A DNA stretch of 36,796 nucleotides from a virus (lineage: Duplodnaviria > Heunggongvirae > Uroviricota > Caudoviricetes): the IMG/VR virus record IMGVR_UViG_2537562172_000001, positions 1 to 36,796 of that record. One strand, given 5' to 3'. Every line of letters starts with the position of its first letter. Positions within the stretch are counted from its first letter, which is position 1. A model generated the notes under the pieces. The model ran no database searches. It saw only the letters and a list, made by a program, of their open reading frames with translations, and was not told the origin of the DNA. Positions 7,420 through 32,703 of the stretch are shown here, one piece after another. A program made the translations under genes and the position numbers.

Positions 7420-7425
7420 GGAGTC

Positions 7426-7920
7426 ATGGCCATGATGATGATCTACGGCATGTTTGTTTTTGAGCTGCGCACATTGCCGCATCAGCAGTTACAGCAAAAC
7501 AAAAGCTGGCGGCATGTGAAAAATGAACGCGTTAACCGCTCAGCAAGCTGGCAGTATATCGGTGCAGGTGATGATCGCATCGTGCTTTCCGGCGTGCTTT
7601 ATCCTGAAATTACAGGTGGCGAAGTGTCGCTTTCGTTGCTGACCACGCAGGCGTATACAGGACGCCCCTGGCCTCTGATTGATGGTGTCGGGCAGATTTA
7701 CGGCATGTATGTACTGACTGAAACGAATACGACCCGCTCCGAGTTTGATCGCTACGGTAAGGCGAAAAAGATAGAATTTTCACTGACCCTTGAACGCTGT
7801 GATGAGGATTTGCGGGAGCGCCTGCAATCCTCATCGTTCAGCGATATGCTGTCCGGCTTCAAAGATAAGGTGACATCATCTCTTAACAGCGCGGCCAGTT
7901 CAGTTAAAGGGCTGTTCTGA
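7426..7920 (+). CDS. U: Tail protein U
   Basis: 164-aa ORF immediately after the tape measure gene; size and position match P2 gpU. Confidence 0.8.
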   Translation: MAMMMIYGMFVFELRTLPHQQLQQNKSWRHVKNERVNRSASWQYIGAGDDRIVLSGVLYPEITGGEVSLSLLTTQAYTGRPWPLIDGVGQIYGMYVLTETNTTRSEFDRYGKAKKIEFSLTLERCDEDLRERLQSSSFSDMLSGFKDKVTSSLNSAASSVKGLF

Positions 7921-7931
7921 TTTAACACAAA

Positions 7932-7967
7932 AACCGCTAATGGTCAGATTAGCGGTTATTTTGTTTT
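7932..7967. terminator. Bidirectional rho-independent terminator between the tail operon and the invertase gene
   Basis: Stem aaccgctaat / attagcggtt with 6-nt loop, then ATTTTGTTTT on the plus strand and an A-rich run upstream (T-run for the minus strand). The invertase stop lies in the hairpin. Confidence 0.6.
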
Positions 7968-8543
7968 CTGACTCTTCTCTATTGTTCCGCTTGATTCTCC
8001 TGCGGGGTGGTAACGATAAATCGTCGATGTACCAATGCCGTAAATTATTGCCAGTTGTTTTCTGTCGTGACCGTTTTTAATCAGCCTTGCTATTTGCTCA
8101 TGCTGTTCTTTTGTCAGCTTCGGGCGACGTCCGCCTGTGCGCCCCCGTGCGCGCGCTGCTGCCAGTCCGGCCAGTGTACGTTCAACAATTAATTCACGTT
8201 CCATTTCAGCCAGGGCACCCATCACGTGGAAGAAAAAACGCCCCATTGGAGAAGATGTATCTATGCTGTCGGTCAGACTGCGAAAATTAATCCCTCGCTC
8301 CCGTAGTTCCCCGACGAGAGAAATCAGATGTTTCATGCTTCGCCCGAGGCGATCCAGTTTCCAGACAACCAGCGTGTCACCTTTTTGAAGGCGCTTTAAA
8401 GCGCGTTTTAATCCCGGTCGGTCTGTCTTTGTCCCGCTTAATTTATCTTCAAATATTTGTTCACATCCTGCACAAACAAGAGCGTTTCGTTGCAGGTCTG
8501 TATTCTGGTCATTTGTTGATACCCTTACATAGCCAATCAGCAC
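7956..8543 (-). CDS. Serine-recombinase DNA invertase (Gin/Pin/Cin/Hin family)
   Basis: Translation contains LIGYVRVSTNDQNTDLQ (catalytic Ser region) and a C-terminal HTH (GIGTSTIYRY) typical of DNA invertases. Probable GTG start at 8543 with GGGAGA at SD spacing. Adjacent to a gix-like site. Confidence 0.9.
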   Translation of the reverse strand: MLIGYVRVSTNDQNTDLQRNALVCAGCEQIFEDKLSGTKTDRPGLKRALKRLQKGDTLVVWKLDRLGRSMKHLISLVGELRERGINFRSLTDSIDTSSPMGRFFFHVMGALAEMERELIVERTLAGLAAARARGRTGGRRPKLTKEQHEQIARLIKNGHDRKQLAIIYGIGTSTIYRYHPAGESSGTIEKSQKTK

Positions 8544-8597
8544 GCTGAATCTCCCGTCCAAAAGCGTAAATCATGCCATGCAGGTCAGAAACGGCCA

Positions 8598-8627
8598 TTA
8601 TCTAAAACCTCGGTTTACAGGAAACGG
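8598..8627. repeat. gix/cix-like inversion crossover site (right inverted repeat)
   Basis: ttatctaaaacctcggtttacaggaaacgg resembles the Gin/Cin recombination-site consensus, and is a near-perfect inverted copy of the site at 11665..11691. Confidence 0.7.
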
Positions 8628-9628
8628 TAAATCAGGCTTCTGGCGCATTACAGAAAAAACAGAACGGCGCAGATATTCCCGATAAAAAACTATTCCTGCG
8701 TAATATCGGCACAACAAATTCAACAACCATGTCTTTTAGTGGTGGTGCTGGATGGTTCAAACTGGCAACTGTAACAATGCCACAAGCCAGTTCCGTGGTT
8801 TACATAAGCCTGATTGGTGGCGCAGGGTATAACGTTGGCTCCTCGCATCAAGCAGGCATCTCTGAGCTGGTTCTGCGTGCCGGAAATGGGAATCCAAAAG
8901 GTATTACTGGTGCATTATGGCGACGGACATCGTTTGGATTTACTAATTTTGCATGGGTGAATACATCCGGTAATACCTATGATGTTTATGTTGAAATAGG
9001 TAATTACGCCACAGGTGTTAATATTCAGTGGGATTATACCAGTAACGCCAGCGTAACGATTCATACATCACCAACTTATACAGCGAATAAACCAACAGGC
9101 CTGACAGATGGAACTGTATATGTAATTTACAGTTCGCACATTAAACCGACTGCTGCTGAGGTTGGGGCGTTGTCATTATCTGGCGGTCAATTGAATGGTG
9201 CACTGGGCATCGGAACATCCAGTGCTCTTGGTGGTAACTCGATTGTTTTGGGTGATAATGACACGGGATTTAAACAAAATGGCGACGGGCATCTGGATGT
9301 TTATGCGAATAACGTCCATGTTATGCGCTTTGTCTCCGGCAGTATTCAAAGTAATAAAACCATAAATATTACGGGGCGTGTTAATCCCACAGATTACGGT
9401 AACTTTGATTCCCGCTATGTCCGGGATATCCGGCTTGGTGGTGCTGCCACATACAAACCTGCGAACAATGGCATGACATGGACACATCAGGCACCGTCCG
9501 GGTGTGTATATTCCGGCATTATTGTTCAGGATACCGGCTCAAACTCTGCCGATAACATTGGTGGCGTATATTACAGGCCGGTTCAGAAATACATTAACGG
9601 GACATGGTATAACGTGGCACAGGTATAA
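8628..9628 (+). CDS. Silent alternative tail-fibre C-terminal cassette (promoterless; fused to H constant region after inversion)
   Basis: Frame is open from the crossover site (ORF track starts at the ATG at 8729). The first residues after the site ([17 protein letters not shown]) parallel H after its crossover site, and the C-terminus ...[12 protein letters not shown] parallels the H end ...[12 protein letters not shown]. Confidence 0.7.
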
Positions 9629-9631
9629 TTT

Positions 9632-10159
9632 ATGCAGCATTTGATAAATATAACAGCGGGTAATCCAAAAACGGTTGAACAATATCAATTGACAAAGGGT
9701 TTTGATGTTGTCTGGTTTTTTTCAGAAGATGGTAAGAACTGGTACGAAGAACAAAAGTATTTTGCTGATGACACGATAAAAATAGCGTACGACAAAGATA
9801 ATATTATCCGCTATGTGGAAAAGGATGTGACAGCTATCAGACCAGATGGATTAAGTGTTGTTGAAGTGCCAGATATTACTGCTAACCGACGGGCGGACAT
9901 TTCAGGGAACTGGATGTTTAAGGACGGCACAGTGATTAAACGAATTTATACGGCGGAGGAATTGCAGCAGCAGGCAGAAAATCGGAAAGCCAGACTTCTT
10001 GCAGATGCTGAATCCGTGATTTTGCCGCTGGAGCGTGCTGTCAGGCTGAATATGGCAACAGATGAGGAGCGTAGCCGACTGGATGCATGGGAACGCTACA
10101 GCGTTCTGGTCAGTCGTGTGGATACGGCAAATCCTGAATGGCCACAAAAGCCTGAATAA
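9632..10159 (+). CDS. Tail fibre assembly protein, alternative copy (G')
   Basis: 175 aa. N-terminus [24 protein letters not shown] is nearly identical to that of the convergent G copy, with a divergent C-terminal half, the usual pattern for paired fibre chaperones in invertible segments. Confidence 0.8.
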
Positions 10160-10164
10160 AAATT

Positions 10165-10190
10165 AAGGCCCGATAGCGGGCCTTGTTTCA
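10165..10190. terminator. Hairpin between the convergent tail-fibre assembly genes
   Basis: Stem aaggcccg / cgggcctt with short loop and flanking T/A-rich runs on both strands. Confidence 0.45.
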
Positions 10191-10721
10191 TTCTGGTTGT
10201 TCTGGAAACGTTACTGGCAGGCTGGAGGTGTCTGTGGATTCGACCTTCTGCGCATAGAGCATCCACTCGGTTAATTTTTGTTTATTCTCGTCGGAAATGA
10301 TGCCCAGCCGTAGCTGTGAGTCCCATAGCTGGGTTTTATCCCTGACAAGTTGCAACAGGCTTTGCTTTTCATTCTCTGCCTGCTGCCTCTGTTCCTCCTC
10401 GGTATAAGTTCGCTTTATCACTACGCCATCTTTGAACATCCATTTCCCCGAAATATCAGCCCGGCGATTTGCTGTAATATCAGGCAACTCAACGACACTT
10501 AAACCTTCTGGATTAATTGCCGATACATCTTTATCCATAGCAACAATTATTCCCTCTACAGTGTAAGCCAGTTTTATTGTATCTTTCTGAAAGTTTTTCA
10601 CTTCCTCATACCAGTTTTTTCCGTCTTCGGACCATAACCAGATAACATTAAAATTCTTTGTTAGCTGATATTGTTCAACGGTTTTTGGATTACCTGCGAC
10701 AATGTTTTTTAAATGCTGCAT
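10188..10721 (-). CDS. G: Tail fibre assembly protein (expressed copy)
   Basis: 177 aa, directly downstream of H in the same orientation. N-terminus [24 protein letters not shown]. Confidence 0.85.
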
Positions 10722-10723
10722 GA

Positions 10724-13075
10724 TTATACCTGCGATACGTTATACCATGTTCCGTTAATTAACTTTTGTATTGGTCTGAATACTGCCGGATCATCGCCAT
10801 CAACTTCACCGACAATGCCAAGCCCCGTAATTGCATGACCTGACTTTTCATACATCACGCCTTTTTGCATAGTCTGAACAACACGTGTGCCCAGTCGAAT
10901 ATCTCGTACATAGCGAGAATCTGATTCGGCTTTGGTATATGCACCAACATCTCCTGCTGATGGCTTGCGTGTTGTGGTATAAAACTCTGACCAGTCAGCC
11001 TCAAATCCATAACCATCACGCGCTGAACGATAAAAAATACCGCCGTTCCTGTAATTCACGCGGAACTGTACAGCAGGGCAGCTCCCCGTATTCATATTGA
11101 AGTGGAGGATTAATGTCGATGCGCCACTAATGTTTGCGTTATAGACCCCGCTATTCCAGTTCCAGCCAACAGCTTTATCATTTCCGACAGTGCTTCCTGT
11201 TCGCCCTAAAGCAAATGCAGGTTGTTGATTTTTCGTGTTGTAGTCTCGTCGCCAGCCAGGAGCGTAAGCATCACCATGATTGATATAAGTGAATTGAGCG
11301 TTAGTAATTCCGTCACCGCTGGACGTGCTCGGCGTGGTAACGCGTATGGTCATTGCGCCGCGAGTGCCAATAACTTCCACCACAGCACCTGCAAGACAAA
11401 TATTTCCGCAACCTGTATCTGTAATGACCTTATTATTTGCATAAGCCCATGAGCCTTTGCACATCCAGTAAGGATGGTTAAATGCCCCCTGACTCTCCAG
11501 CCACGAAATAAATTGCGCGGTTGTCCAGACCTGATTATCGCCACCAATATCCAGCCATGCGCTATATGCGCGGCAGGCCCCAATATTTTTGGTGAAGGTA
11601 TCTTTTCCTGGAATATCTGCGCCGTTCTGGTTTTTCTGTAATGCGCCAGAAGCCTGATTTACCGTTTTCTGTAAACCGAGGTATTCGATAACGGCGGCAA
11701 CGGTAGATTTCGCAAGAATATCCCGCCCGACTTTTGTCAGAGTTGCCAGGCTGGCGACATCATTCCCCGTAAAATACGGAAACCTGTCTGCCGCAGTATC
11801 AAGCCCGGCCAGCGCCGTCAGGGTGGCATCTTTCGGTTGCTTACCCGCAAGCGCGTTAGTCATGGTGGTCGCAAAATTCGGGTCGTTTCCCAGCGCCGCC
11901 GCTAACTCGTTCAGCGTATTCAGTGCGTCAGGTGACGAATCTACAAGGGCGGCAATCGCAGCCATAACGAAAGCCGTGCTTGCGATTTGGGTATTATTCG
12001 TTCCCTGTCGCGCAGTTGGCGTTGTTGGCGTTCCGGTCAGCGCAGGACTGTTTAAGGGCGCTTTCTTGTTCGTTTCATCCATTACCACCTTAACCGCTTT
12101 CGATGTCGCGGCCAGTGTTTCAGACGTGCTGTTGGTGGCACTACTGAGCTGGACTATCCCTTTTTGTGCCGTCGTGGCGTCCTGAGCGGTATATTTTGCG
12201 TTAGCAAGGTCATACGCGGCCTTTACTGCTTTCGGCGTTGCAGCCTGCGTTTCAGACGTGCTGTTGGTGGCACTACTGAGCTGGACAAGACCTTTTCGCG
12301 CTGTAGTGGCGTCCTGTGCGGTATATTTCCCGTTAGCAAGGTCATAGGCTGCCTTGACCGCTTTCGGCGTTGCGGCCAGTGCTTCAGACGTGCTGTTGGT
12401 GGCGCTACTGAGCTGGACAAGACCTTTTCGCGCTGTAGTGGCGTCCTGTGCGGTATATTTCCCGTTAGCAAGGTCATAGGCTGCCTTGACCGCTTTCGGC
12501 GTTGCGGCCAGTGCTTCAGACGTGCTGTTGGTGGCGCTACTGAGTTGAACAAAGCCTTTTGCGGTCAGCGAGGCGTCCGGGTGACGTCGTGACTGTTCGT
12601 GCTCTGAGATTTTGTCATCCACATATTTGCGGGTTGCCAGAACCACAGACGGGTCGATTTTCAGCGTGATGGCTTCGGTGTTCGTGACAACCAGAATCAT
12701 GCGGATAGTCTGGGTGCGTCCACTGCCTTCCTGCAACTGCGGTTTGTACGTTTCCGGGCAGTTCGCCACCGCAATGAGTACGCCTTCATCATCATAAAGC
12801 CCAATCTCACGGATCCAGAATCCTCCCTCGTTTTCAGGGATAATTTGCTCCGCAATAATCTGGCTCTGATTGTTAGGGTCAACGCTCAGAAGATTCAGCG
12901 GTGCAATGCGTTTCTGGTTAATCAGTTTTGTCTGTGCCGGGTCTGGTGTCGGTAATACACCATTCGCATCACCAACGGCCATTTGCGTCAGATTCAGCTT
13001 ACTGCCGAGCATCGTCGCGTTAGCCAGTCGTGCCGCGCCCTGATTAGTCAGAATGGCGTAGTATTTCACTGTCAT
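10724..13075 (-). CDS. H: Tail fibre protein (constant N-terminal part plus currently expressed variable C-terminal part)
   Basis: 783 aa with internal ~45-aa tandem repeats ([42 protein letters not shown]) and a gix-like site inside the gene at about 11665..11691. C-terminus ...[11 protein letters not shown]. Confidence 0.9.
11665..11691. repeat. gix/cix-like inversion crossover site (left inverted repeat, inside H)
   Basis: ttttctgtaaaccgaggtattcgataa; its reverse complement ttatcgaatacctcggtttacagaaaa matches the 8598..8627 site at most positions. Confidence 0.7.
12105..12580. repeat. In-frame tandem repeats (~135 bp unit, about 3.5 copies) within the constant part of H
   Basis: Near-identical 135-bp units are visible directly in the sequence, for example two adjacent copies starting near 12247 and 12382. 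Confidence 0.7.
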
Positions 13076-21558: not shown

Positions 21559-23310
21559 ATGATTCAGGACGCTTTTGTGCGCCAGCGTGCGCGGCAACTT
21601 TACTGGCAGGGTTATCCGCCCGCAGAAATATCGCGTCTGATGGGAATAAACCCGAACACGATTTATGCGTGGAAAAAACGCGACCAGTGGGATGAAACGC
21701 CACCCGTGCAGCGTGTCACTCAGTCCATCGATGCGCGCCTCATCCAGCTTACTGAAAAACAGAATAAAACAGGCGGTGACTTTAAGGAAATAGACCTGCT
21801 GACCCGGCAACTTAAAAAGCTGCATGATGGCCAGCCGGATGTGATGGCCGCAGGAAAGAAAGGCCGGGCGAAAAAACTCAAAAATCATTTCACGCCGGAA
21901 CAGATTGCCGCACTGCGGGAAAAAATCATCAGCAGGCTGGAGTGGCATCAGCGGGGCTGGTTTGACTCCCTGACCCTTTGCAGGGAAGCCGGGATACGTA
22001 ACAGGATGATCCTGAAATCCCGACAGATTGGGGCGACCTGGTATTTTGCACAGGAAGCTCTGCTGATGGCGCTGCGTGACGATGTGGCGCAACCTTACCA
22101 GCGTAACCAGATTTTTTTGTCTGCGTCGCGTCGTCAGGCGTTCCAGTTTAAAAGCATTATTCAGAAGGCCGCGGCTGAAGTTGATGTGGAGCTGAAAGGG
22201 GGCGATAAAATCATCCTCTCCAACGGCGCAGAGCTGCATTTTCTCGGCACTTCTGCTGCGTCGGCACAGTCCTATACGGGCAATTTTTATTTTGATGAAT
22301 TTTTCTGGGTCAGTCGCTTTGCTGAACTGCGCAAGGTGGCTGGCGCTATGGCAACCCTCAGCGGACTGCGGCGCACCTACTTCTCTACGCCATCCACCGA
22401 AACGCACGAGGCATACGCCTACTGGAACGGTGACCGCTGGAACGAGAAAAAGGCCTCGCATAAACGCCAGCGTTTTTCTGTGGACTGGAAAACGCTGCAT
22501 AACGGGCTTATCTGCCCTGACCGGACGTGGCGGCAAATTGTCACGCTGGAAGATGTGGTTAATCACGGCTGGAAACACACCGATATTGATGAAATTCGTG
22601 ATGAAAACACCGAAGACGAGTTCCTCAATCTCTATATGTGTGAGTTTGTCCGAGAAGGGGAATCGGCATTTAACCTGAATATCCTGATTGGCTGCGGTGT
22701 TGACGGATACGACGACTGGAAAGACTGGAAACCTTTTGCTCCCCGCCCGATGGGGAATCGTCCGGTATGGATTGGGTATGACGCAAACGGCAGCAGTGGA
22801 AACGGCGACAGCGGCGCTGTGTCCGTGGTGGTTCCTCCGGCTGTTCCTGGTGGCCGTTTTCGAACGGTGGAGACGCGACGCGTTCAGGGGCTGGAGTTTG
22901 AAGAGCAGGCCAGAGTCATTGAAGAGTTCACGTGTCGCTACAACGTGGAACACATCGGCATTGATGTGACGGGCGGGAACGGGGAGGCTGTTTATCAGAT
23001 AGTGAAACGGTTTTTCCCTGCCGCTATTCCGTACACCTTCACGCTGTCATCAAAACGGTCGCTGGTACTGAAAATGCTGCAAATAATGCGTGCCGGGCGG
23101 TGGGAATACGATCGCGCCGAACGCGAGCTGGTCGCGGCCTTTAACGCCGTGCGTAAGGTGAAAACACCGGGCGGCTTTATCACTTACGAAACGGACCGCG
23201 CGAGGGGGATCAGCCACGGCGACCTTGCGTGGGCAACCATGCTTGCTGTCATTAACGAACCAATTGGCGGCGAAGGAGAAAACGAGCGTTTCACGGTTAT
23301 GGAGTTCTGA
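21559..23310 (+). CDS. P: Terminase ATPase (large) subunit
   Basis: 583 aa (P2 gpP is 590 aa), divergent from O and followed by the portal gene. Confidence 0.9.
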   Translation: MIQDAFVRQRARQLYWQGYPPAEISRLMGINPNTIYAWKKRDQWDETPPVQRVTQSIDARLIQLTEKQNKTGGDFKEIDLLTRQLKKLHDGQPDVMAAGKKGRAKKLKNHFTPEQIAALREKIISRLEWHQRGWFDSLTLCREAGIRNRMILKSRQIGATWYFAQEALLMALRDDVAQPYQRNQIFLSASRRQAFQFKSIIQKAAAEVDVELKGGDKIILSNGAELHFLGTSAASAQSYTGNFYFDEFFWVSRFAELRKVAGAMATLSGLRRTYFSTPSTETHEAYAYWNGDRWNEKKASHKRQRFSVDWKTLHNGLICPDRTWRQIVTLEDVVNHGWKHTDIDEIRDENTEDEFLNLYMCEFVREGESAFNLNILIGCGVDGYDDWKDWKPFAPRPMGNRPVWIGYDANGSSGNGDSGAVSVVVPPAVPGGRFRTVETRRVQGLEFEEQARVIEEFTCRYNVEHIGIDVTGGNGEAVYQIVKRFFPAAIPYTFTLSSKRSLVLKMLQIMRAGRWEYDRAERELVAAFNAVRKVKTPGGFITYETDRARGISHGDLAWATMLAVINEPIGGEGENERFTVMEF

Positions 23311-24356
23311 TGAGCAGAAAAAATAAAAAAGTGCGCATGAGTTCACGCATTGATCTCGCTGATGCGCTCAGGAAAGAATCATCGCTCAGTGCATTCACAT
23401 TTGATGGTCCTTATCGCCTGACCGGGCATGACCTGCTGGACAATATGTACTGTGCTGATAACGGGCGGTGGTATGAAACCCCGGTGGACTGGTACGGTCT
23501 GGCAAGAACTGCCCGGCAAACGTCCTGGCATCAGTCTGCGCTTTACTTTAAGCGCAATGTATTACTCGGTTGCTACATCCCGCACCCGTTGCTTTCCCGG
23601 CAGGATTTCTCGGCGCTGGCGCTGGACTGGTTTGTGTTCGGTAACGCATTCCTTGAGCTTCGAAGCAATATGCTCGGCGAACCGCTTAAATTACGGCACG
23701 CCCTGGCGAAATACATGCGACGCGGAAGCGATCTTGAATCATGGTGGTATGTGCAGGATGGCAAGGACGCGTTTCAGTTTCGCCCTGGCAAAGTGTGCCA
23801 CCTGATGAATCCTGACATTAACCAGGAAATCTACGGCATGCCGGAATATCTCGGCGCATTACTCTCGGCCAGCCTGTCTCATTCGGCGGACATGTTCAGA
23901 AAACTGTATTACGACAACGGATCCCACGCCGGGTGCATCATCTACATCGGTGCGGCGCAGGTAAACCGCGAAAGCATGGACTCCCTGAAAGAAACGCTAC
24001 AGGGTGCACGTGGTGGTGGTGCGTTTAAAAACGTGCTCATTCATGCGCCCAACGGTGGCAAAGAGGGGGTGCAAATTTTGCCGTTCCAGCAGATCACCGC
24101 AAAGGATGAGTTCATGAATGTTAAGGTGGCATCCCGTGATGATGTGCTGGCTGCGCACCGCGTTCCGCCGCAACTGATGGGGGCGATGCCAGGCGAAAAA
24201 AGTGCGTTTGGTGATGTGGAGAAGGCCGCGCGGGTTTACGCAATTAACGAGCTGATGCCCGTCATGGAGGCCATGAAGCACATCAATGACTGGCTTGGCG
24301 AAGAGGTGATCCGTTTTAATTCTTATGCTCTTCTTGATGAAAAAACAGCCCCGTGA
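23310..24356 (+). CDS. Q: Portal protein
   Basis: 348 aa (P2 gpQ is 344 aa), start overlapping the P stop (TGATG). Confidence 0.9.
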   Translation: MSRKNKKVRMSSRIDLADALRKESSLSAFTFDGPYRLTGHDLLDNMYCADNGRWYETPVDWYGLARTARQTSWHQSALYFKRNVLLGCYIPHPLLSRQDFSALALDWFVFGNAFLELRSNMLGEPLKLRHALAKYMRRGSDLESWWYVQDGKDAFQFRPGKVCHLMNPDINQEIYGMPEYLGALLSASLSHSADMFRKLYYDNGSHAGCIIYIGAAQVNRESMDSLKETLQGARGGGAFKNVLIHAPNGGKEGVQILPFQQITAKDEFMNVKVASRDDVLAAHRVPPQLMGAMPGEKSAFGDVEKAARVYAINELMPVMEAMKHINDWLGEEVIRFNSYALLDEKTAP

Positions 24357-24374
24357 TGGGGCTGTCCTTTTTTA
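24345..24374. terminator. Bidirectional terminator hairpin between convergent Q and the orphan gene
   Basis: Stem acagcccc / ggggctgt with 5-nt loop; T-run CCTTTTTT downstream on the plus strand and an A6 run upstream (T-run on the minus strand). Confidence 0.55.
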
Positions 24375-24896
24375 CCAGAGTTGAACCATTTTCTGGGTGC
24401 CGTCAGGCTTGAGATTATCAATTTCAGAGAGAACGTAATATTGAATGGCTTCACAAACGGTGGTGTATGGTGAATTACCTTCTTTAAGTGGCACGATATT
24501 ATTATTAACGCGAGCCTGTATTTCATCGTTATACATTGCGATCGAAAGAGGAGTATGCACGAAGGCGACTTCGCCAGGTGTGTCGTCAACCACTGTCTCA
24601 ATGCTGAAAATCAGTTTTCGCTCATCATTGCCGCCCCTTGCTTTGGGGGTAGCGGCAGGAATCTGAGATAAAGGCATTCTGCGAAACCCTTCAGCCGTTT
24701 CCAGTCCGCATGAAACGTAATGCTGGCGATTACCGTCGCTATCCGTCCATGTCTGTGATGGCAGCTCCAGAGAGATTTCATAAGCATCAACAATTCCCTG
24801 GGCAATGCGTACAAGCGGGGTCAGGTCTTCATTGCGGCGAAAACTCTCCTTTACCTGATCTCGTTTTTCTCGTAACTGCTTGTAATTAATGACCAT
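24372..24896 (-). CDS. Orphan hypothetical protein (about 174 aa) between portal gene and the expected cos region
   Basis: ORF 24372..24935. Likely start is the ATG at 24896 (MVINYKQLREK...), preceded by GGAGG at 8 nt. No family recognised. Confidence 0.6.
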   Translation of the reverse strand: MVINYKQLREKRDQVKESFRRNEDLTPLVRIAQGIVDAYEISLELPSQTWTDSDGNRQHYVSCGLETAEGFRRMPLSQIPAATPKARGGNDERKLIFSIETVVDDTPGEVAFVHTPLSIAMYNDEIQARVNNNIVPLKEGNSPYTTVCEAIQYYVLSEIDNLKPDGTQKMVQLW

Positions 24897-25507
24897 AGAA
24901 CAGCCTCCATTGATTTCTTTGCTCGTATTTTGCACTTATGAAGTGTGGTCGGCAAGGTGCCGCATCACTGACGCGCTTCGCTTGTCTGCTGCTTCGCCGG
25001 GGCATAAAAAATTTATGCCCCGACTCTCCAGCTCCTGTATCAATCAGATAATTTCACGACGTCTTCCGACTTATCGCTATCATCGACGGCCAGACTCTTA
25101 CACAATCCCGCCGCGCTGACTGCATGTTCTCGCCGCCTCAGTGCGATTTTGACGGCCTTACCTTTCATCCCATCAAATCAGAACACCTTACGTCTTTTTC
25201 ACGCTCAGCGTGAGCGATACAGCCATTCTGTTGTGTCGCTGCGACATCGTTCAGGGAATGCTATTTACCCCCTGAAACGCGGGCTGTTCCCCCGTCACCT
25301 GCGCGCAGAAAAAACGCGTTTTTTGTGCACGTACGGATCCTTGATGGATCCAGCTGCCATGCGGGCCTGAAGGGTAAAAAGTCGTTCAAAAAAATTGTGC
25401 AAATTTGTGCACAATCTTGCATTAAAATCAACGTTCAGTGGATGTATTTAAGCGAAAAAAAAGATCTTTGTATAATTTCGTTCGGTTACGTTGGTGAGAG
25501 GTTCTGA

Positions 25508-25909
25508 GTGAAAGACATCACATATTGGAATGATAAAATTCAGAAACAAATTGATAGTTATCCTGAAGCTGTTCGAGAAAGGATAAATTTTGAGCTTGTT
25601 GCACTGCAGAGCGATTGTCCTCATTCTTTCGACAGTTTCGATTTTCCAGTGGATGGTGATGATGCCTTGGGGGTTCCACCTGCTCAAAAAAAATCAATGC
25701 GGGAAACGATTGGTCGCTACGCAATGCAATTAACCATCAAGAGTAGTGATTCTTATCGTATGATTTACGTTGCGAAATTTGCGGAGTCTGTTTACATACT
25801 TCATACATTTAAGAAAAAGACAAATGGTGTGTCAAAAAAAGAATATGAGACAGCTGCCGCAAGATACAAACAATTAGTGGAGTATCGTCGTAAAAATGGC
25901 TTAAGATAG
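25508..25909 (+). CDS. RelE/ParE-superfamily toxin, Gp49/HigB-like
   Basis: C-terminal region YRMIYVAKFAESVYILHTFKKKTNGVSKKEYETAAARYKQ fits the Gp49-like (HigB) pattern. GTG start. Immediately followed by an XRE HTH gene. Confidence 0.65.
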   Translation: MKDITYWNDKIQKQIDSYPEAVRERINFELVALQSDCPHSFDSFDFPVDGDDALGVPPAQKKSMRETIGRYAMQLTIKSSDSYRMIYVAKFAESVYILHTFKKKTNGVSKKEYETAAARYKQLVEYRRKNGLR

Positions 25910-25979
25910 CTTGCAGGTATCTCAAATCTGATATAACATAATCAATGTCAGCAACATCGCTGATTAAGGCTGGAGAGTT

Positions 25980-26297
25980 ATGGAATTCGTCGTAGTCAAA
26001 AACCCTTATGCGTCATCAAGTAGCTCTGTAAATGAAGCTAGTGATAAACACATCCGGGCCCAATTAATGGTTATTATCCGAAAAATGATTCAGGAGCGCG
26101 GTCTTACCCAGCGAGAAGCTGCTGAATTGCTGGAAACAACCCAACCAAGAGTAAGCGAAATCATTAATGGTAAGTTAGATAATCATACCATTGATCGACT
26201 GTTTATCATGCTAAACATCCTGGGGTGGGATTTTAAGTTTGGGTATTCCGGTGGGGTTGTTACTGCGACGGCAGAACATTCCTGTCAGGTTGCATAA
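25980..26297 (+). CDS. XRE-family HTH antitoxin (HigA-like)
   Basis: Helix-turn-helix segment LTQREAAELLETTQPRVSEIINGK, 105 aa, directly downstream of the toxin-like gene and followed by a terminator. Confidence 0.65.
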   Translation: MEFVVVKNPYASSSSSVNEASDKHIRAQLMVIIRKMIQERGLTQREAAELLETTQPRVSEIINGKLDNHTIDRLFIMLNILGWDFKFGYSGGVVTATAEHSCQVA

Positions 26298-26623: not shown

Positions 26624-26652
26624 TAAAAGCATGGCGAAAGCCATGCTTTTTG
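26624..26652. terminator. Bidirectional terminator between the small ORF and parR-like gene
   Basis: Stem aaagcatggc / gccatgcttt with GAAA loop, followed by TTT; A-run upstream. Confidence 0.6.
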
Positions 26653-26655
26653 TGA

Positions 26656-26970
26656 TCATTCAGGAAAAAATTCCTGAATATTCTTTTTTATTTGACTTAT
26701 ATTCTGATTTTTGCAACCAACAGGCTCGCTGTTATGCCAGCCCCATATGTGATTGTTGGCAGGCATATTTTCCCCCTCTGACCATTCAGCCAGCCAGTAA
26801 GCAAAGGCAGGATCGTTTTTAATGAGTGCCAGTCCAGCCAGAAATGCCGCGCGTTGCGCGCGGCTGCGTTCGGAGGCTGGCAGGCTGTCGAGATAATTAC
26901 ACGCTTCCCGTTCACTCTTGACTGCAGCTGGCTTCAGATAGAAACTTATCCGTCTGGTTGGTGTCGTCAT
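26656..26970 (-). CDS. parR: ParR-like centromere-binding adaptor (ribbon-helix-helix)
   Basis: From the Met at 26970: MTTPTRRISFYLKPAAVKSEREACNYLDSLPASERSRAQRAAFLAGLALIKNDP resembles R1 ParR (..FKLNPDVNQTDKIVCDTLDSIPQGERSRLNRAALTAGLALYRQDP, recalled from memory). AAGGAG SD; start lies 4 nt after the parM stop. Confidence 0.7.
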   Translation of the reverse strand: MTTPTRRISFYLKPAAVKSEREACNYLDSLPASERSRAQRAAFLAGLALIKNDPAFAYWLAEWSEGENMPANNHIWGWHNSEPVGCKNQNISQIKKNIQEFFPE

Positions 26971-26974
26971 TGGT

Positions 26975-27934
26975 TTACTCCTTGTCCATTGCGTACAGCC
27001 CATTAACCAGAGCAAACTGTGGCACCCCGTCCGCGATGAAAGTCGCATTAACTCCGCAGGCTTCGCGGATAGCGGGTGCCACAATCTCCGCCCCGCCACC
27101 GACAACCATCACCCGCCCGTAACCCGAAAAACCCGCCAGCGCGCGGATCACGCGTTGTTTCAGTGTTTCTTCCTTTTCACGAATAACCGCCATCAGGCTG
27201 GCGTAATGCGCGTCATTGTGGATGTGCTGGCGCAGCCAGGCTTCATCATGGCGATGTTCGATAATGGTATTGGCGATGTGGTGACTGGTGCGCATACCGT
27301 TAGTGGCCATCACCGACAGTACGGCATCGGCCATCAGAGAAACGCCTACGTGTGGATCGCAAAACACCTGGCTGATACCTGCCAGTTGTCCCTGAACCTT
27401 TGCCACATCCAGCGTGGTTCCGCCTAAATCCACAATCAGCAGGGATTCAAACGGACTCATGTCAGCCAGTGCTTTAAAGCCAGCCGGAATGGATTCAGGC
27501 ATAACCCGTACGTTACGGATAGTGAATGCTTCGCCGTTCTGGTACTCCACCGGGCGCATGACGTTCGCTTTTTTGCGGTTGATGTTGGCCATGTCCGGCT
27601 GTGCGTTTGTGTCGAAATACTCGCTCAGTGGCAGGGTGACAACCACATCCACTTCCTGTGGTGTGATGCCTGATTTGACCAGCGCGTGATGAATGGCGAT
27701 TACATTCACATCGCTGTACTGGTATTGCGTGTCAGTCGTCTGGACAAAGCGATCGCTGACCGGATCAAAGCCATAGCGCACGCCATCAAGCATGTAGTTC
27801 GCGGGATGCGTGCCACCGAACGGCGCAGACCATTCCGACTTGAAGCTGTTCGGGCTGATGGCGTTGCGGCGTTCGCCGTTCTCAGTCCATGCCAGCTTGA
27901 TGTTGGTGGAGCCGTCGTCGATACAAATTTTCAT
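26975..27934 (-). CDS. parM: ParM/StbA-like actin-fold ATPase (type II plasmid partition NTPase)
   Basis: 319 aa. MKICIDDGSTNIKLAW (phosphate-1 motif), SPNSFK, YQYSDVNV..HHAL, TLPLSEY, RKKANV, VMPESIPAG and LIVDLGGTTLDV (phosphate-2 motif) align along the whole length with R1 ParM as recalled. Confidence 0.85.
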   Translation of the reverse strand: MKICIDDGSTNIKLAWTENGERRNAISPNSFKSEWSAPFGGTHPANYMLDGVRYGFDPVSDRFVQTTDTQYQYSDVNVIAIHHALVKSGITPQEVDVVVTLPLSEYFDTNAQPDMANINRKKANVMRPVEYQNGEAFTIRNVRVMPESIPAGFKALADMSPFESLLIVDLGGTTLDVAKVQGQLAGISQVFCDPHVGVSLMADAVLSVMATNGMRTSHHIANTIIEHRHDEAWLRQHIHNDAHYASLMAVIREKEETLKQRVIRALAGFSGYGRVMVVGGGAEIVAPAIREACGVNATFIADGVPQFALVNGLYAMDKE

Positions 27935-27963: not shown

Positions 27964-28077
27964 CGTTTACAGGATTCTGAAATCCCGCTCTTGCCTGTTT
28001 TGTGCGCGCTTCATATATCGCGGCACGTTTTTTGCTCATTTACGGGATTTGTGAATCCCGTTTCTGTCTGTTTTTTG
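27964..28077. repeat. parC-like centromere/operator candidate: two ~40-bp direct repeats, each containing an inverted repeat
   Basis: Copy 1 cgtttacaggattctgaaatcccgctcttgcctgttttgtg and copy 2 catttacgggatttgtgaatcccgtttctgtctgttttttg lie upstream of parM. Copy 2 sits within the last codons of gene A. Confidence 0.45.
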
Positions 28078-30833
28078 TTTCCACTGGTCAGGCTACCCCG
28101 CAGCAGGTCTGCTTTGCGGCGGGCGCGTTCAGTTGTTTCACTGATTCTCTGTGCGTGCTCTGCGTCGCGGATGGCGCGTAGCATGTCAGAAAGTACGGTA
28201 ACGGGTGTTTTCATGGTGTTCTGGTCTTGCTGAAGTGTGGATGCCAGGCGTGCGGCGGCTTCAGGGGCTGATGCCCCTAGTTGTTCCAGATAGCTGGCGA
28301 CCGGGTTATGGCGGATCTCCGTGCTGCTTACGCCGTGATTACGACTCAGGCGTTGCCAGAGCTGCGTGATTCGGCTGTCCGGGCGGGTATCCGGTTTGCG
28401 TACAATTTCAAATCCCTGCGGTGCAATGATGCTGCCGTCAACGTACAGGCTGCCGCCCCGTAACAGGTGCTGCATCTGCTGTTCACCGATATGCAGGCCG
28501 AGAGATTCAGCAGACTCCCGCCATTCTTTAGCGAGTAACTCGTGGTTATCAGGCAAAGGCCGTGGCTGTTTGCGGCTCTGTGTCCAGTTCTGCATTTCAT
28601 CACTGCTGTTTTTTGCCTGTTTGTCACGAAGCGAACGCATCAGCGCCCGGCGTTCGTGCCGTTTCAGTGAGCGCATCCATTCGTTCACTTCAACGCCGTC
28701 AGGGAGCTGCGGCCACGGTGCTGGCCGTTCTTTCGGCTGTTCTGTCCCGTTGTTGTCCGTTTCCTGTACACGGGGACAGTTATTGCCACGAGTCCAAGGG
28801 GCGGCAGGGCCGCCCTGAAGGTCAAAACCATTTTCACGGGCGCTGTCTTCCGCTTCCGGTTTACGTCTTACCAGCTTCCAGTTATCCGGGTGCGTGCACA
28901 CGCGGGAAGACTCCCCAATGAGCGGCGACCAGATCCCGTAAATCTGTACGCTCTGTTCGCCGTAATCGTTCAGCTCATCTGCGAGGTCGTAGGCGGTGCG
29001 AATCAGGTAGTCTTTGCGTGGAACAAGTACGCCGCCCTGTTTCTCAATGTAGGTGGCAAAACATCCGGCATCAGCGGCAGCAAGAACCGCGTCCATTGCG
29101 TCATCCTTCAGCCGTTGCGGGCCTTCCGGGTTGCGTGCCATCTGGCTGGCAAGGCGGCGGAGTTCACGCCACACCTGACGGGAGGGGATACCAAAGAACT
29201 GGAACTGGCGGACACGGTGAAGGCGCGCCCAGCCGATGGCGCGTTCCACGCTCTCGGCCATTGATTTTCCGGTTTCGTGGTCAACGCGTGGCTTGCCCGT
29301 TTTCGGGTCGATGCCATCCACGGCGCGGCTGTCCAGGTTTTTTCCGATGTAGGTGGCGATGTAGCTGGTTGGCGTGCCTTTTGAGCCGTCGACGTACTCC
29401 GCCTTAAAACGCGGAGTAATATCATCGCCCAGCTCGTGACGATCTTCCTGAATGGCAATATCGCGGGTGTGGGACACAATGGTGTCGATTTCTTCCGGAT
29501 GTGCAAAGACCATCATATGCCAGTGCACGGTGCCGTCATGGTGAGGCTCCACCGTGCGGATGCCATACCAGCGCAGGCCGTCGCGGTTCAGTTTTTTGCG
29601 GACCGCCGCAAAAAACGTGTTAACCAGGTAATCGCTGGAGTCGCGCATGGTGGCCCCGTTCCATTTGGGATTCGGATGACCGTTCTCTGTTGTGGCGTGG
29701 TATTTTGACGGGCAGGTGACAGTCAGAAACACCGCTTTGTCGCCACGGGCTTCGGCCAGAAGTTCCAGCCCTTTCATGGTAGCCATCATTTCTGCCTTAC
29801 GGTGAACCGGGTTACTTACTCCCGCGTAATACACCGTCTCGAGATCAATCGTGAACCCGTCTTCGTTTTCCAGCATGAAACTTTTCAGGAAATCGCGTGT
29901 TTTCTCGCGCTGTGCGCGAAACTCGCTTAACGCGTCCTGGCTCAGATAGGGCGATGTTTTTCTGGAAACCAGACAGGCGGCGCGGAGTTGTTCTTCTCTC
30001 CACTCGCAACGTAACAGCCACAGTTTGCGTTTCCACCATTCTGCACAGGTCAGGCGAAGGATTGCGCCCGGCAGCAGCTCCGTGTCCGGTTCGTTCCTCC
30101 GGTCTTTGTCTGTTGTCAGTGCGTCATAATGTGGAGGCATGGCGTGCAGGTGTAACGCCATGCGGGCCAGCATCTGATACGCCTTCAGGGTTACATCCAT
30201 GGTCAGCTCGCCATCGGTCGAGCCAAAGCCATCGCAGAGTTTTTCGAAGGTGCTGCTGAACATCGCCGCCGTCATGGTGGCCAGCGTCTGTATCTGGTGT
30301 TTGTTGAGCTGCGGCAGGTAAAGCAAATCGTCCAGGCGTTCGCGTCCGGCAAGGGAGCGATAACCCGGTGTCAGCCAGCGGTGATCGGTGCGCTCCAGAC
30401 GTTCGAATATTTTGCGCAGGGTCCCACGCGCATAGCGTTCTGCCTGCCTGGCGTTTTTTCCTTTCTGACGATCGGCTTCCTGTTTTTTGCGCAGGAAGGA
30501 GAGGTGGCGAATAAGCGGATCTCGCAGATAGGACGGCAGCAGGCGCAGCGAGGCCATGGCTTCATCCACCGCGCCGCGTGCCTGTTTTCTGGCGTCTCCT
30601 GCCAGTGTGATGGTTTTGTCCTGTTTTTCCTGTGCGTCCAGGCTTTTATTAATCAGGTTGCCCAGCGGCGTGGCGGAGAACGCCGCATCAGCCATTTCCT
30701 GGCGGCGCTCGTTCTCTACCCGGTAGGCATCCAGCCAGGAGGAAAGCGCGGATTCAGGAGCGGGGATCCCCGTTCCTTCACGCCCCACTGCGTGGCGCGG
30801 TTGTTGCCAGTCCCTGATGTACTCCGTTGACAT
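28011..30833 (-). CDS. A: Replication gene A protein (rolling-circle replication initiator endonuclease)
   Basis: Contains VFLTVTCPSKYH, RTVEPHHDGTVHWHMMVF and YIATYIGKNLD, paralleling P2 gpA motifs (ITLTAPSKYH, VVEPHHDGTPHWHMMLF, YIAKYISKNIDG). 940 aa from the first Met; start uncertain. Confidence 0.9.
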   Translation of the reverse strand: MSTEYIRDWQQPRHAVGREGTGIPAPESALSSWLDAYRVENERRQEMADAAFSATPLGNLINKSLDAQEKQDKTITLAGDARKQARGAVDEAMASLRLLPSYLRDPLIRHLSFLRKKQEADRQKGKNARQAERYARGTLRKIFERLERTDHRWLTPGYRSLAGRERLDDLLYLPQLNKHQIQTLATMTAAMFSSTFEKLCDGFGSTDGELTMDVTLKAYQMLARMALHLHAMPPHYDALTTDKDRRNEPDTELLPGAILRLTCAEWWKRKLWLLRCEWREEQLRAACLVSRKTSPYLSQDALSEFRAQREKTRDFLKSFMLENEDGFTIDLETVYYAGVSNPVHRKAEMMATMKGLELLAEARGDKAVFLTVTCPSKYHATTENGHPNPKWNGATMRDSSDYLVNTFFAAVRKKLNRDGLRWYGIRTVEPHHDGTVHWHMMVFAHPEEIDTIVSHTRDIAIQEDRHELGDDITPRFKAEYVDGSKGTPTSYIATYIGKNLDSRAVDGIDPKTGKPRVDHETGKSMAESVERAIGWARLHRVRQFQFFGIPSRQVWRELRRLASQMARNPEGPQRLKDDAMDAVLAAADAGCFATYIEKQGGVLVPRKDYLIRTAYDLADELNDYGEQSVQIYGIWSPLIGESSRVCTHPDNWKLVRRKPEAEDSARENGFDLQGGPAAPWTRGNNCPRVQETDNNGTEQPKERPAPWPQLPDGVEVNEWMRSLKRHERRALMRSLRDKQAKNSSDEMQNWTQSRKQPRPLPDNHELLAKEWRESAESLGLHIGEQQMQHLLRGGSLYVDGSIIAPQGFEIVRKPDTRPDSRITQLWQRLSRNHGVSSTEIRHNPVASYLEQLGASAPEAAARLASTLQQDQNTMKTPVTVLSDMLRAIRDAEHAQRISETTERARRKADLLRGSLTSGNKKQTETGFTNPVNEQKTCRDI

Positions 30834-31872: not shown

Positions 31873-32703
31873 TTACTTCACGGGAACGAACGGAACAGCG
31901 GTGTTACTGGTCATGTATTGCGGCAGCGTGCCGTTCCATTTGTTGATCGCTTCCAGCTCCATAACGCCGGGATTCTGGCGCAGAGCTTCACCGCGTAAAC
32001 GAATGGCGTCGGCTTCAGCCTGGGCTTTTGTGCGAATGGCATCAGCCTGTCCGGCAGCTTCTGCGCGCAACATGTTGGCTTCTGCTTCGCGTTGCTTGAC
32101 TTCCTGTTCGCGTTGCAGGGTTTTCTGGTTTGCCGTGACTTTGGCGTTAATGCTGTCGATAACGGTTGGCGGATATTCCGGTTTACCGACATAAGAGAGG
32201 CTCATGACCTGAATGCCGATGGGGGTCATCTCTTCCTGAATATCTTTAAGTGCTGAATCCAGCAGTTCAGACTTACCACCGTCGATAAACTTATCGGTGG
32301 TCATTTTGCTGGCCAGTCGGTTGAGTGCATCGGCAATCTTCTGGCGCAGGTCAGTGTCGGTAATGTCATCCACGCCTTTGCGGTAGGTCTGAAACACTGT
32401 GGTAACTTTGGATGGATCAACCTTGTAAGCCACGCCGATGTGATAGCCGATGGTTGTGCCGTCACTCATCTGAAAGCTGAACGGCTCATCGTAGGTCTTC
32501 ATTTGTTTGAAGGTCGGGAAGATGTAAACCTCGGTATTCCAGCCAGTCCAGTAGCGGCCAACGCCAACCACTTCGCCAACGCCTTTGTCGTCGCCCAGCT
32601 TGTTGACTTTGATGCCCACATTACCTGGCTCAACGCGATCGCAACCAACCAGCAGGATGGCGGCAAAAAGCGGGATAATCTGAAAGAGTCTGAATTTCTT
32701 CAT
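31873..32703 (-). CDS. SPFH/band-7 (stomatin/prohibitin/flotillin-like) domain lipoprotein
   Basis: 276 aa. N-terminus MKKFRLFQIIPLFAAILLVGC has a lipobox (LVGC). Followed by a band-7-like core and a C-terminal Ala/Glu/Arg/Gln-rich coiled-coil segment (REQEVKQREAEANMLRAEAAGQADAIRTKAQAEADAIRLRGEA). Confidence 0.8.
   Translation of the reverse strand: MKKFRLFQIIPLFAAILLVGCDRVEPGNVGIKVNKLGDDKGVGEVVGVGRYWTGWNTEVYIFPTFKQMKTYDEPFSFQMSDGTTIGYHIGVAYKVDPSKVTTVFQTYRKGVDDITDTDLRQKIADALNRLASKMTTDKFIDGGKSELLDSALKDIQEEMTPIGIQVMSLSYVGKPEYPPTVIDSINAKVTANQKTLQREQEVKQREAEANMLRAEAAGQADAIRTKAQAEADAIRLRGEALRQNPGVMELEAINKWNGTLPQYMTSNTAVPFVPVK

Follow-up and report, generated by a model that had tools for sequence, protein, structure and literature searches.

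A 0.6-kb single-gene cassette at the portal end of a P88-type prophage, probably an autonomous moron of the gpA-gpQ hotspot

The DNA analysed here (the window, 36,796 nucleotides) spans positions 1 to 36,796 of the IMG/VR virus record IMGVR_UViG_2537562172_000001 and is an E. coli prophage of the P2 family, P88 type (genus Xuanwuvirus, Peduoviridae). It carries a gene for a 174-amino acid (aa) protein, convergent with the portal gene, which an earlier reading of the letters alone (the sequence-only reading) had pointed out as an orphan lying between the portal gene and the expected cos region. The gene sits on a cassette of putative promoter, gene and terminator that has recombined into the portal 3' end of a P88-like prophage, on the portal side of cos. 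It is probably a classic autonomous moron of the gpA-gpQ hotspot, encoding a non-enzymatic binding protein expressed from the prophage. By analogy with other genes of this region, a role in defence or counter-defence is plausible.

Results

Insertion at the portal 3' end

In a pairwise alignment with phage P88 (NC_026014) homology stops at 24338 and restarts at 24960, with 621 bp in the window taking the place of 7 bp. The insert expected from the sequence-only reading is therefore present, and the probable cos core lies beyond it (Table 1). The cassette provides a new end to the portal protein, ..LLDEKTAP* instead of the ..LLDTQPTS* of P88, and a Salmonella phage carrying the gene has a portal C-terminus of the same type (..LLEEK). 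A relic of the ancestral portal 3' end with its stop codon is retained at the other border (CCGCATCACTGA, corresponding to CCACATCCTGA in P88), showing that the cassette was gained here and not lost in P88. The flanks are intact without the gene in P88, in P88_4B11 and in 12 other P88-type records.

In the P2 reference the end of gene Q is 187 bp from cosL, in agreement with the distance of about 200 bp quoted earlier. The P2 cos 19-mer (cohesive-end sequence) has no match in the window at up to 3 mismatches, and BLAST comparison of the P2 cos junction with the region returned only weak and mutually inconsistent matches. The segment 24960-25433 is kept among P88-type phages. Within it, conservation with Salmonella P2-like loci (L018 and L019) is limited to about 155 nt (76-77% identity) with unalignable flanks, and the two ends of the linear P88_4B11 record meet inside this same core, at the equivalent of 25376/25377. 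Because of this conserved core and of the record ends abutting there, cos is probably located within it. This would place the 174-aa gene on the portal side of cos, with the portal gene on its other flank and the presumed end at a distance of about 480 bp. A TTGTGCA(C)A motif is repeated along the edge of this putative core (25385-25421; TTGTGCAAATTTGTGCACAATCTTGCA) and is kept in Salmonella P2-like phages. These repeats may be a binding site for terminase or for an accessory factor.

The far side of cos carries hotspot cargo, here a toxin-antitoxin-like pair with a G+C content of only 40%. This cargo changes independently of the 174-aa gene (PV468777, Salmonella loci, CP019953). The gene is accompanied by the Gp49/HTH (helix-turn-helix) pair, by a DUF4760 gene with a gene of no assigned function, by a YafO toxin, by an HTH/M78 peptidase protein or by Ead/Ea22. 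Since the cargo beyond cos differs in every case, the 174-aa gene behaves as a stand-alone unit.

Table 1. Positions in the window of the cassette, of its control elements and of the surrounding features
Feature	Position	Strand	Remarks
Large terminase gene	21559-23310	+	
Portal gene, gpQ homologue	23310-24356	+	Last 6 codons (..DEKTAP*) derived from the cassette
Inserted cassette, 621 bp	24339-24959		New portal end codons, terminator, gene, ribosome-binding site, putative promoter
Bidirectional intrinsic terminator, common to the portal and 174-aa genes	24345-24365	both	Terminator scan; folding
Coding sequence, 174 aa plus stop	24372-24896	-	ATG at 24896; family phrog_5091
Shine-Dalgarno sequence GGAGG	24904-24908	-	7 nt 5' of the ATG
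Putative sigma-70 promoter	24927-24955	-	-35 TTGCCG (24955-24950), 17-nt spacer, -10 CAAAAT (24932-24927); inside the cassette
Ancestral portal 3' end, relic with its stop codon	24960-24971	+	Sequence and P88 counterpart in the text
Perfect 10-bp hairpin	24999-25021		GGGGCATAAA-AAA-TTTATGCCCC; -28.9 kcal/mol, z -6.6; without U-run
Probable cos core	25269-25421		Conservation with Salmonella P2-like loci L018, L019
Hotspot cargo, far side of cos	25508-26297	+	Gp49/HigB-type toxin and HTH_37 antitoxin-like gene (Pfam)
Gp49/HigB-type (RelE/ParE superfamily) toxin gene	25508-25909	+	Pfam
HTH_37 antitoxin-like gene	25980-26297	+	Pfam
gpA replication gene homologue	28011-30833	-	
Integrase	35765 onwards		

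The gene and its control elements

The open reading frame called by program (24372..24935, minus strand) is 187 aa long with a GTG start. All homologues begin M-[VI]-I-[NT]-[YF] at the ATG of 24896, and the Prokaryotic Genome Annotation Pipeline (PGAP) delimits the same 174-aa coding sequence in a prophage 97.5% identical to the window, which adjoins yecA/tyrP in E. coli IGC_RcoliRes_1.1. The GGAG of the Shine-Dalgarno sequence is unchanged in five homologous loci. The earlier description of a well-formed gene, convergent with the portal gene and preceded by GGAGG, is thus confirmed. The protein is 19.8 kDa, with an isoelectric point of 5.0 and a grand average of hydropathy of -0.50. Judged by inspection of sequence and model, its charged N-terminus and all-soluble AlphaFold topology point to neither a signal peptide nor a membrane segment. 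Compared with two E. coli alleles, the window gene has a ratio of non-synonymous to synonymous substitutions (dN/dS) of 0.09 and 0.24; the value is 0.09 for these two alleles against each other and 0.19 for a pair of Salmonella alleles. The gene is real and under purifying selection. Its G+C content (46.3%) is lower than that of the portal gene (52.9%), the large terminase gene (53.9%) or the window (52.3%).

The terminator common to both convergent genes has the portal stop codon in its loop, an A-run before and a T-run after the hairpin, so that termination is possible from either direction. Folding energies on the two strands are -18.8 and -20.6 kcal/mol (z -4.3 and -5.3), as the claim of a shared bidirectional terminator implied. 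The promoter-like region also proposed at that stage is recovered as a conserved TTGCCG-17-CAAAAT footprint. When the upstream 120 nt of E. coli and 60%-diverged Salmonella homologues are aligned, CTTG.C, 17 nt, CAAAAT, about 30 nt, GGAG and ATG are invariant and equally spaced while the remainder has diverged. These elements may be the footprint of a weak sigma-70 promoter. Ogr/Delta late-promoter boxes (TGT-N12-ACA) are absent from the vicinity of the gene and fall below chance in the window as a whole. Expression from the lysogen is plausible on the basis of these signals. No Rfam match was obtained on 24200-25600.

A second hairpin, a perfect 10-bp stem, is kept in all P88-type phages. It lies directly 3' of the portal stop codon in P88 and, in the window, upstream of the putative promoter of the cassette. 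A function as a partial terminator or as a site for protein binding is conceivable.

Family and predicted structure

The sequence-only reading had recognised no family for the product. This stands insofar as the protein belongs to no family of known function. It does not stand in the sense of a singleton: the protein matches phrog_5091 (PHROGs v4, "unknown function") over its full length (E 3.3e-65, residues 1-168 on profile positions 1-164 of 164), as do all 42 of 42 diverse relatives. An exhaustive profile search gathered at least 75 clusters at 50% identity. With few exceptions these are 155-175 aa long and single-domain, and their members are called "hypothetical protein" throughout. The gene is no isolated case in position either, being inside the known P2 gpA-gpQ hotspot, and Rousset et al. 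2022 (PMC9122126) list its product (WP_001407222) as "hypothetical" in their hotspot table. Literature searches for WP_001407222, phrog_5091 and P88-like phages returned nothing on the 174-aa gene.

Pfam and NCBIfam gave no match for the window protein or for the 42 relatives, and the family profile matched none of the PDB sequences, DarA included. Homology to a structural or packaging protein of P2 is therefore not supported by Pfam, NCBIfam or PDB sequences, and the gene is missing from most P88-type prophages. BFVD gave no match. No signature of an enzyme or of a defence family was found. Two candidate similarities were discarded. The Pfam profile Complex1_LYR (E 0.051) was short of the cut-off. 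Designed helical repeat proteins were retrieved from the PDB with the single protein (E 2e-8, residues 125-168); these matches vanish when the family profile is used and were treated as compositional artefacts.

Members share the motifs M-x-I-T-Y-x-D-I (N-terminus), Y-x-x-S-L-x-L-P-x-x-x-W-x-D, Y-V, T-V-[VI]-D-D-x-P and V-C-E-x-I-K, and many end in L-W-D. Only S42, L43 and W50 are invariant across all 42 members, which argues against a catalytic site. An AlphaFold2 model built from an 18-sequence alignment (mean predicted local distance difference test score, pLDDT, 81.6; predicted template modelling score 0.73) shows two helices (5-23 and 26-42), then a sheet of mainly antiparallel strands (49-135), a helix (145-159) and a disordered tail. 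The look-alikes of this predicted fold are protein-binding modules that share the helix-sheet-helix layout, none of them a convincing relative. It is worth mentioning a 3099-aa protein (P0045) in which 10 separate stretches match the family profile (best E 9.5e-8, profile positions 78-136). These matches may represent a repeated beta-hairpin unit or be spurious.

Distribution and genomic contexts

The gene is found in 397 of 5426 complete E. coli genomes (about 7%), always on the chromosome. A portal/cos query matches 1146 E. coli genomes, so that roughly a third of P88-type prophages carry the gene; it is present in 4 of 16 P88-type phage records. The presence/absence comparison suggested with the first description thus identifies an accessory gene, missing from about two thirds of the E. 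coli genomes with this portal type. Carriers include ST131 and several Shiga-toxin-producing (STEC) lineages, and also Salmonella and Yersinia, with near-identical copies in Salmonella and Yersinia enterocolitica. A profile scan of genome contigs detected one locus only. Copies at 59-62% identity occupy the same position in Salmonella-type P2-like prophages of another lineage, where 15-34 bp separate them from the end of the convergent portal gene; the portal protein there is 74% identical. The reading frame is intact at 60% identity in Salmonella.

Relatives at 20-30% identity are found in lambdoid prophages, and others in E217-like myoviruses. In lambdoid prophages of Yersinia, Klebsiella and Salmonella, and in two contigs from public sequencing runs, the gene is located between the antiterminator gene Q and the holin gene, on the late strand. 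IMG/VR lambdoid loci (n=18) show Q upstream in 13 and holin/endolysin genes downstream in 15, all on the same strand, and a TerB-like gene 3' of the family gene in 14. The locus tables of L010-L013, L037 and L038 list no gene between Q and the family gene. In some IMG/VR loci a tRNA cluster (Met/Arg/Arg or Thr/Gly) precedes it, and the resulting layout, Q-tRNA-gene-lysis, corresponds to the arrangement around stx in Stx phages. The isolated phage CharmingMan has the same lambdoid arrangement, with TerB-like and TciB-like genes after the family gene. In the E217-like myoviruses the gene lies in the tail module, either between the tube/chaperone genes and an 834-aa gene of tape-measure size or beside Dit-like/hub genes. 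A terminator is found directly 3' of the gene in five loci (L006, L010, L016, L028, L053), often with another one 5', and L028 has a promoter matching 10 of 12 positions just upstream of it. The short metagenomic contigs of P0089 and P0091 give uninformative contexts.

The family follows the moron pattern, that of a small autonomous cassette tolerated at a few late-operon joints. The head and tail types with which it is associated are unrelated, so its protein partner is more likely a host protein, or another widely shared one, than a single virion protein.

Several features of these distant loci are worth recording. In E. coli lambdoid loci (IMG/VR L024-L035, L040, L041; see also L015) a 141-aa TerB-domain gene nearly always comes next after the family gene, ahead of the holin gene, and an N6-adenine methylase gene and a tRNA cluster are often found on the 5' side. 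The family gene and the TerB-domain gene may form a conserved two-gene accessory block. The place between the tail chaperone and tape-measure-sized genes in the E217-like loci L049, L052, L053 and L054 is an unusual one for an insertion, and in these tail modules an intrinsic terminator overlaps the called start of the tape-measure-sized gene. In the Yersinia enterocolitica prophage L006, the Q-holin slot also holds a reverse-strand NA37 nucleoid-associated-like gene with a 411-aa gene of no assigned function, and behind the lysis genes lies a second pair, for a protein kinase and a PP2C phosphatase (intervals of the two pairs: 5150-7532 and 10165-11702). Both pairs may be defence cargo.

Discussion

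Possible role of the 174-aa protein

The gene is very probably a moron that was acquired horizontally, is functional and codes for a soluble protein without enzymatic activity. The scenario that we favour for its role is as follows. A self-contained cassette has recombined into the portal 3' end of a P88-like prophage. Its gene would be transcribed from its own weak sigma-70 promoter, without the late activator, and its product made in the lysogen. The product would be a small soluble alpha/beta protein in which a pair of helices at the N-terminus precedes an antiparallel sheet, a C-terminal helix and a flexible tail with the conserved L-W(-D) at its end, and would act stoichiometrically by binding another protein. 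The outcome would be a lysogenic conversion in phage-phage conflict, superinfecting phages being excluded or aborted in a manner analogous to P2 tin. This prophage-expressed exclusion or defence role is ranked first, with a probability of about one in three, because of the track record of the hotspot, the convergent orientation and the apparently autonomous control of sigma-70 type. Defence systems abound in the gpA-gpQ interval of P2-like phages, an established hotspot (PMC9122126; PMC13586616), and over one third of cloned P2/P4 candidates and 6 of 8 P4 loci of unknown function conferred phage resistance (PMC9122126, PMC13586616).

Several observations weigh against this ranking. No homology ties the family to defence: PADLOC-DB 2.0 has no match for the window protein and, for the 42 relatives, a single marginal one (PDC-S26, E 0.009). 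Homology to P2 Tin (NP_046797) was rejected (hhalign probability 0.3%), as was homology to the presumed TaiEcA of phi80 (hhalign probability 0.1%, BLASTP E 0.9), the latter being the reverse-strand 204-aa gp52, which we infer from its size, orientation and position to be orf63/taiEcA. Single-gene defences usually have an effector domain, and the 174-aa protein has none. The gene is on the portal side of cos, away from the variable hotspot cargo. The consensus promoter scan called nothing upstream of it, having missed the putative promoter because this matches the consensus at just 8 of 12 positions. The lambdoid and E217-like copies are co-oriented with late genes and may also, or only, be expressed late in the lytic cycle, which a counter-defence or lytic role would fit equally well. 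Finally, both the defence and the counter-defence readings are based on location.

A role in counter-defence or host takeover comes second and is possible, if doubtful. The protein would be a stoichiometric inhibitor that neutralises, during lytic growth, a system of the host or of a satellite set off by late events (such as satellite interference or a sensor for proteins of the portal, terminase, capsid or tail). A small, single-domain, non-enzymatic and mildly acidic protein resembles most anti-defence proteins. The lambdoid copies lie with late genes in the interval from Q to lysis, the E217-like copies are inside tail operons and the P2-like copy abuts the portal and terminase genes, while association of the family with very different virion modules points to a target that is probably host-encoded. 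However, the gene of the window is convergent with the late operon and has a sigma-70-like promoter with no late-activator box, and the terminator-bounded moron architecture is typical of prophage-expressed genes. Moreover, the DefenseFinder anti-defence models identified only Anti_RM and Anti_CRISPR in 28 P2-like phages (PMC13586616), so that this common gene is not a known anti-defence. No link to any particular defence system was seen.

Another lysogenic conversion that benefits the host, such as orphan immunity to a toxin of the type VI secretion, contact-dependent inhibition or colicin type, or stress tolerance, is unlikely and ranked third. It would agree with the autonomous moron architecture and with the neighbours of the family in E. 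coli lambdoid loci, where a TerB-like gene comes next in 14 of 18, and in CharmingMan (TerB-like and TciB-like). However, no cognate toxin was identified and no TerB neighbour is found in the P2-like, Klebsiella, Salmonella or Yersinia contexts.

The constant location in late or morphogenetic regions (portal side, before holin, chaperone-tape measure, Dit-like/hub) could also indicate a dispensable virion or assembly protein, such as a chaperone of assembly or a head protein that is internal or ejected, with its gene retained beside those for morphogenesis. This fourth explanation is improbable. The gene is missing from most P88-type prophages and also from phage P88, whose virions are infectious (PMC5285337). 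The unrelated head and tail types make a common structural partner unlikely, the P2-like copies are convergently oriented and have their own putative promoter, and the family profile matches neither DarA nor any other PDB chain. As for a decaying hitch-hiker or a mis-called reading frame, which the complete lack of function-bearing homology might suggest, it is effectively refuted by selection and conservation: dN/dS of 0.09-0.24 between alleles, an intact frame in Salmonella at 60% identity, full-length conservation across at least 75 clusters at 50% identity, a confident AlphaFold model (pLDDT 81.6) and conserved ribosome-binding site and putative promoter elements.

Returning to exclusion or defence, a more general proposal can tentatively be made. 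With phrog_5091 as its founder, a new family of single proteins for phage conflict (defence or counter-defence) might exist that lacks any recognisable relative in fold and acts purely through binding to a conserved protein of host or phage, perhaps via the C-terminal L-W(-D) tail. Its capture as a moron bounded by terminators would have happened repeatedly, in late regions of at least three unrelated temperate-phage architectures, among them the stx slot and a stable, so far unremarked portal-side sub-site of P2-like phages. The gene is common, in about 7% of complete E. coli genomes, yet entirely uncharacterised, and a one-gene 0.6-kb cassette with its native control elements makes a cheap candidate given the track record of the hotspot. 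If a new defence or anti-defence family were confirmed, the positional pattern (portal-cos, Q-holin/stx slot, tail module) would provide an unusually clear evolutionary story. If assays were negative, it would be one more hypothetical moron in a known hotspot.

Other features of the window

Capsid, lysis and tail genes lie to the left of the terminase and portal genes, and ParM/ParR-like genes, gpA and the integrase gene to the right. The ParM (StbA) gene (26975-27934) and the ParR-like partitioning/stability gene (about 26650-26970) are located between gpA and the hotspot and are kept in P88-type prophages. Such a pair is unusual for an integrated P2-like phage. In the Rousset catalogue these genes are counted as hotspot content (PMC9122126).

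A further feature is a serine recombinase/invertase gene (7956-8561, minus strand; Resolvase and HTH_7, Pfam). It is adjoined on the plus strand by a 299-aa reading frame and a second tail-fibre assembly gene (8729-10159), which are faced by the tail-fibre gene and its assembly gene on the minus strand (10188-13075). The invertase block (7956-10721, with 10724-13075) looks like the invertible host-range switches of Mu (G segment) and P1 (C segment). The block is missing from a related prophage in CP054662. A gene for an SPFH/Band 7 protein is present in the early region (31873-32703) and also occurs in that related prophage and in a Klebsiella lambdoid locus.

Comparison with known systems

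The 174-aa gene resembles the cargo of the P2 gpA-gpQ hotspot (old, tin and others) in lying between gpA and gpQ and in being a single accessory unit with its own putative promoter. However, it is joined to the portal 3' end on the portal side of cos, and it is on the gpA side that cargo is swapped. It coexists with varied cargo, its position is fixed at 60% identity in Salmonella phages, and its product has no recognisable effector domain. The fixed sub-site on the portal side of cos and the recurrence of the family in the Q-holin slot and in tail modules would be new with respect to the published catalogue (PMC9122126).

The phi80 taiEcA gene offers another parallel. This accessory gene is close to cos and runs against the late operon ("non-contiguous operon"); constitutive expression was proposed for it, and Tai homologues are found in moron loci of several kinds of mobile element (PMC11364771). 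The 174-aa gene is likewise antisense at the end of the late operon and next to cos. In contrast to Tai, it has no neighbouring counter-defence gene, and its family is co-oriented with late genes in lambdoids. A type II toxin-antitoxin module is not indicated, as there is no co-transcribed partner, a single gene lies between terminator and promoter, and the neighbours differ from context to context.

P2 Tin is a single-gene exclusion of T-even phages. The analogy with it is functional only: both are small cytoplasmic proteins without a recognisable enzymatic domain, cos-proximal and prophage-expressed (presumably so for the 174-aa gene), but they differ in size. The likeness to the stx locus is one of position only, the family gene of E. 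coli lambdoids lying after Q, in some cases after a Met/Arg/Arg tRNA cluster, and before the lysis cassette. In contrast to stx, the family gene is flanked by its own terminators, and its protein is unrelated and shows no signal peptide on inspection.

The closest correspondence is with morons, reportedly defined for HK97 and HK022 by Hendrix and colleagues as autonomous promoter-gene-terminator cassettes between late genes. Nothing contradicts membership of this class, promoter activity being deduced from the conserved footprint. As expected of a moron, the 174-aa gene is present or absent between collinear phages, has its own terminator and a promoter-like element and is lower in G+C content, and in all phage types examined its family is found within late operons or beside them.

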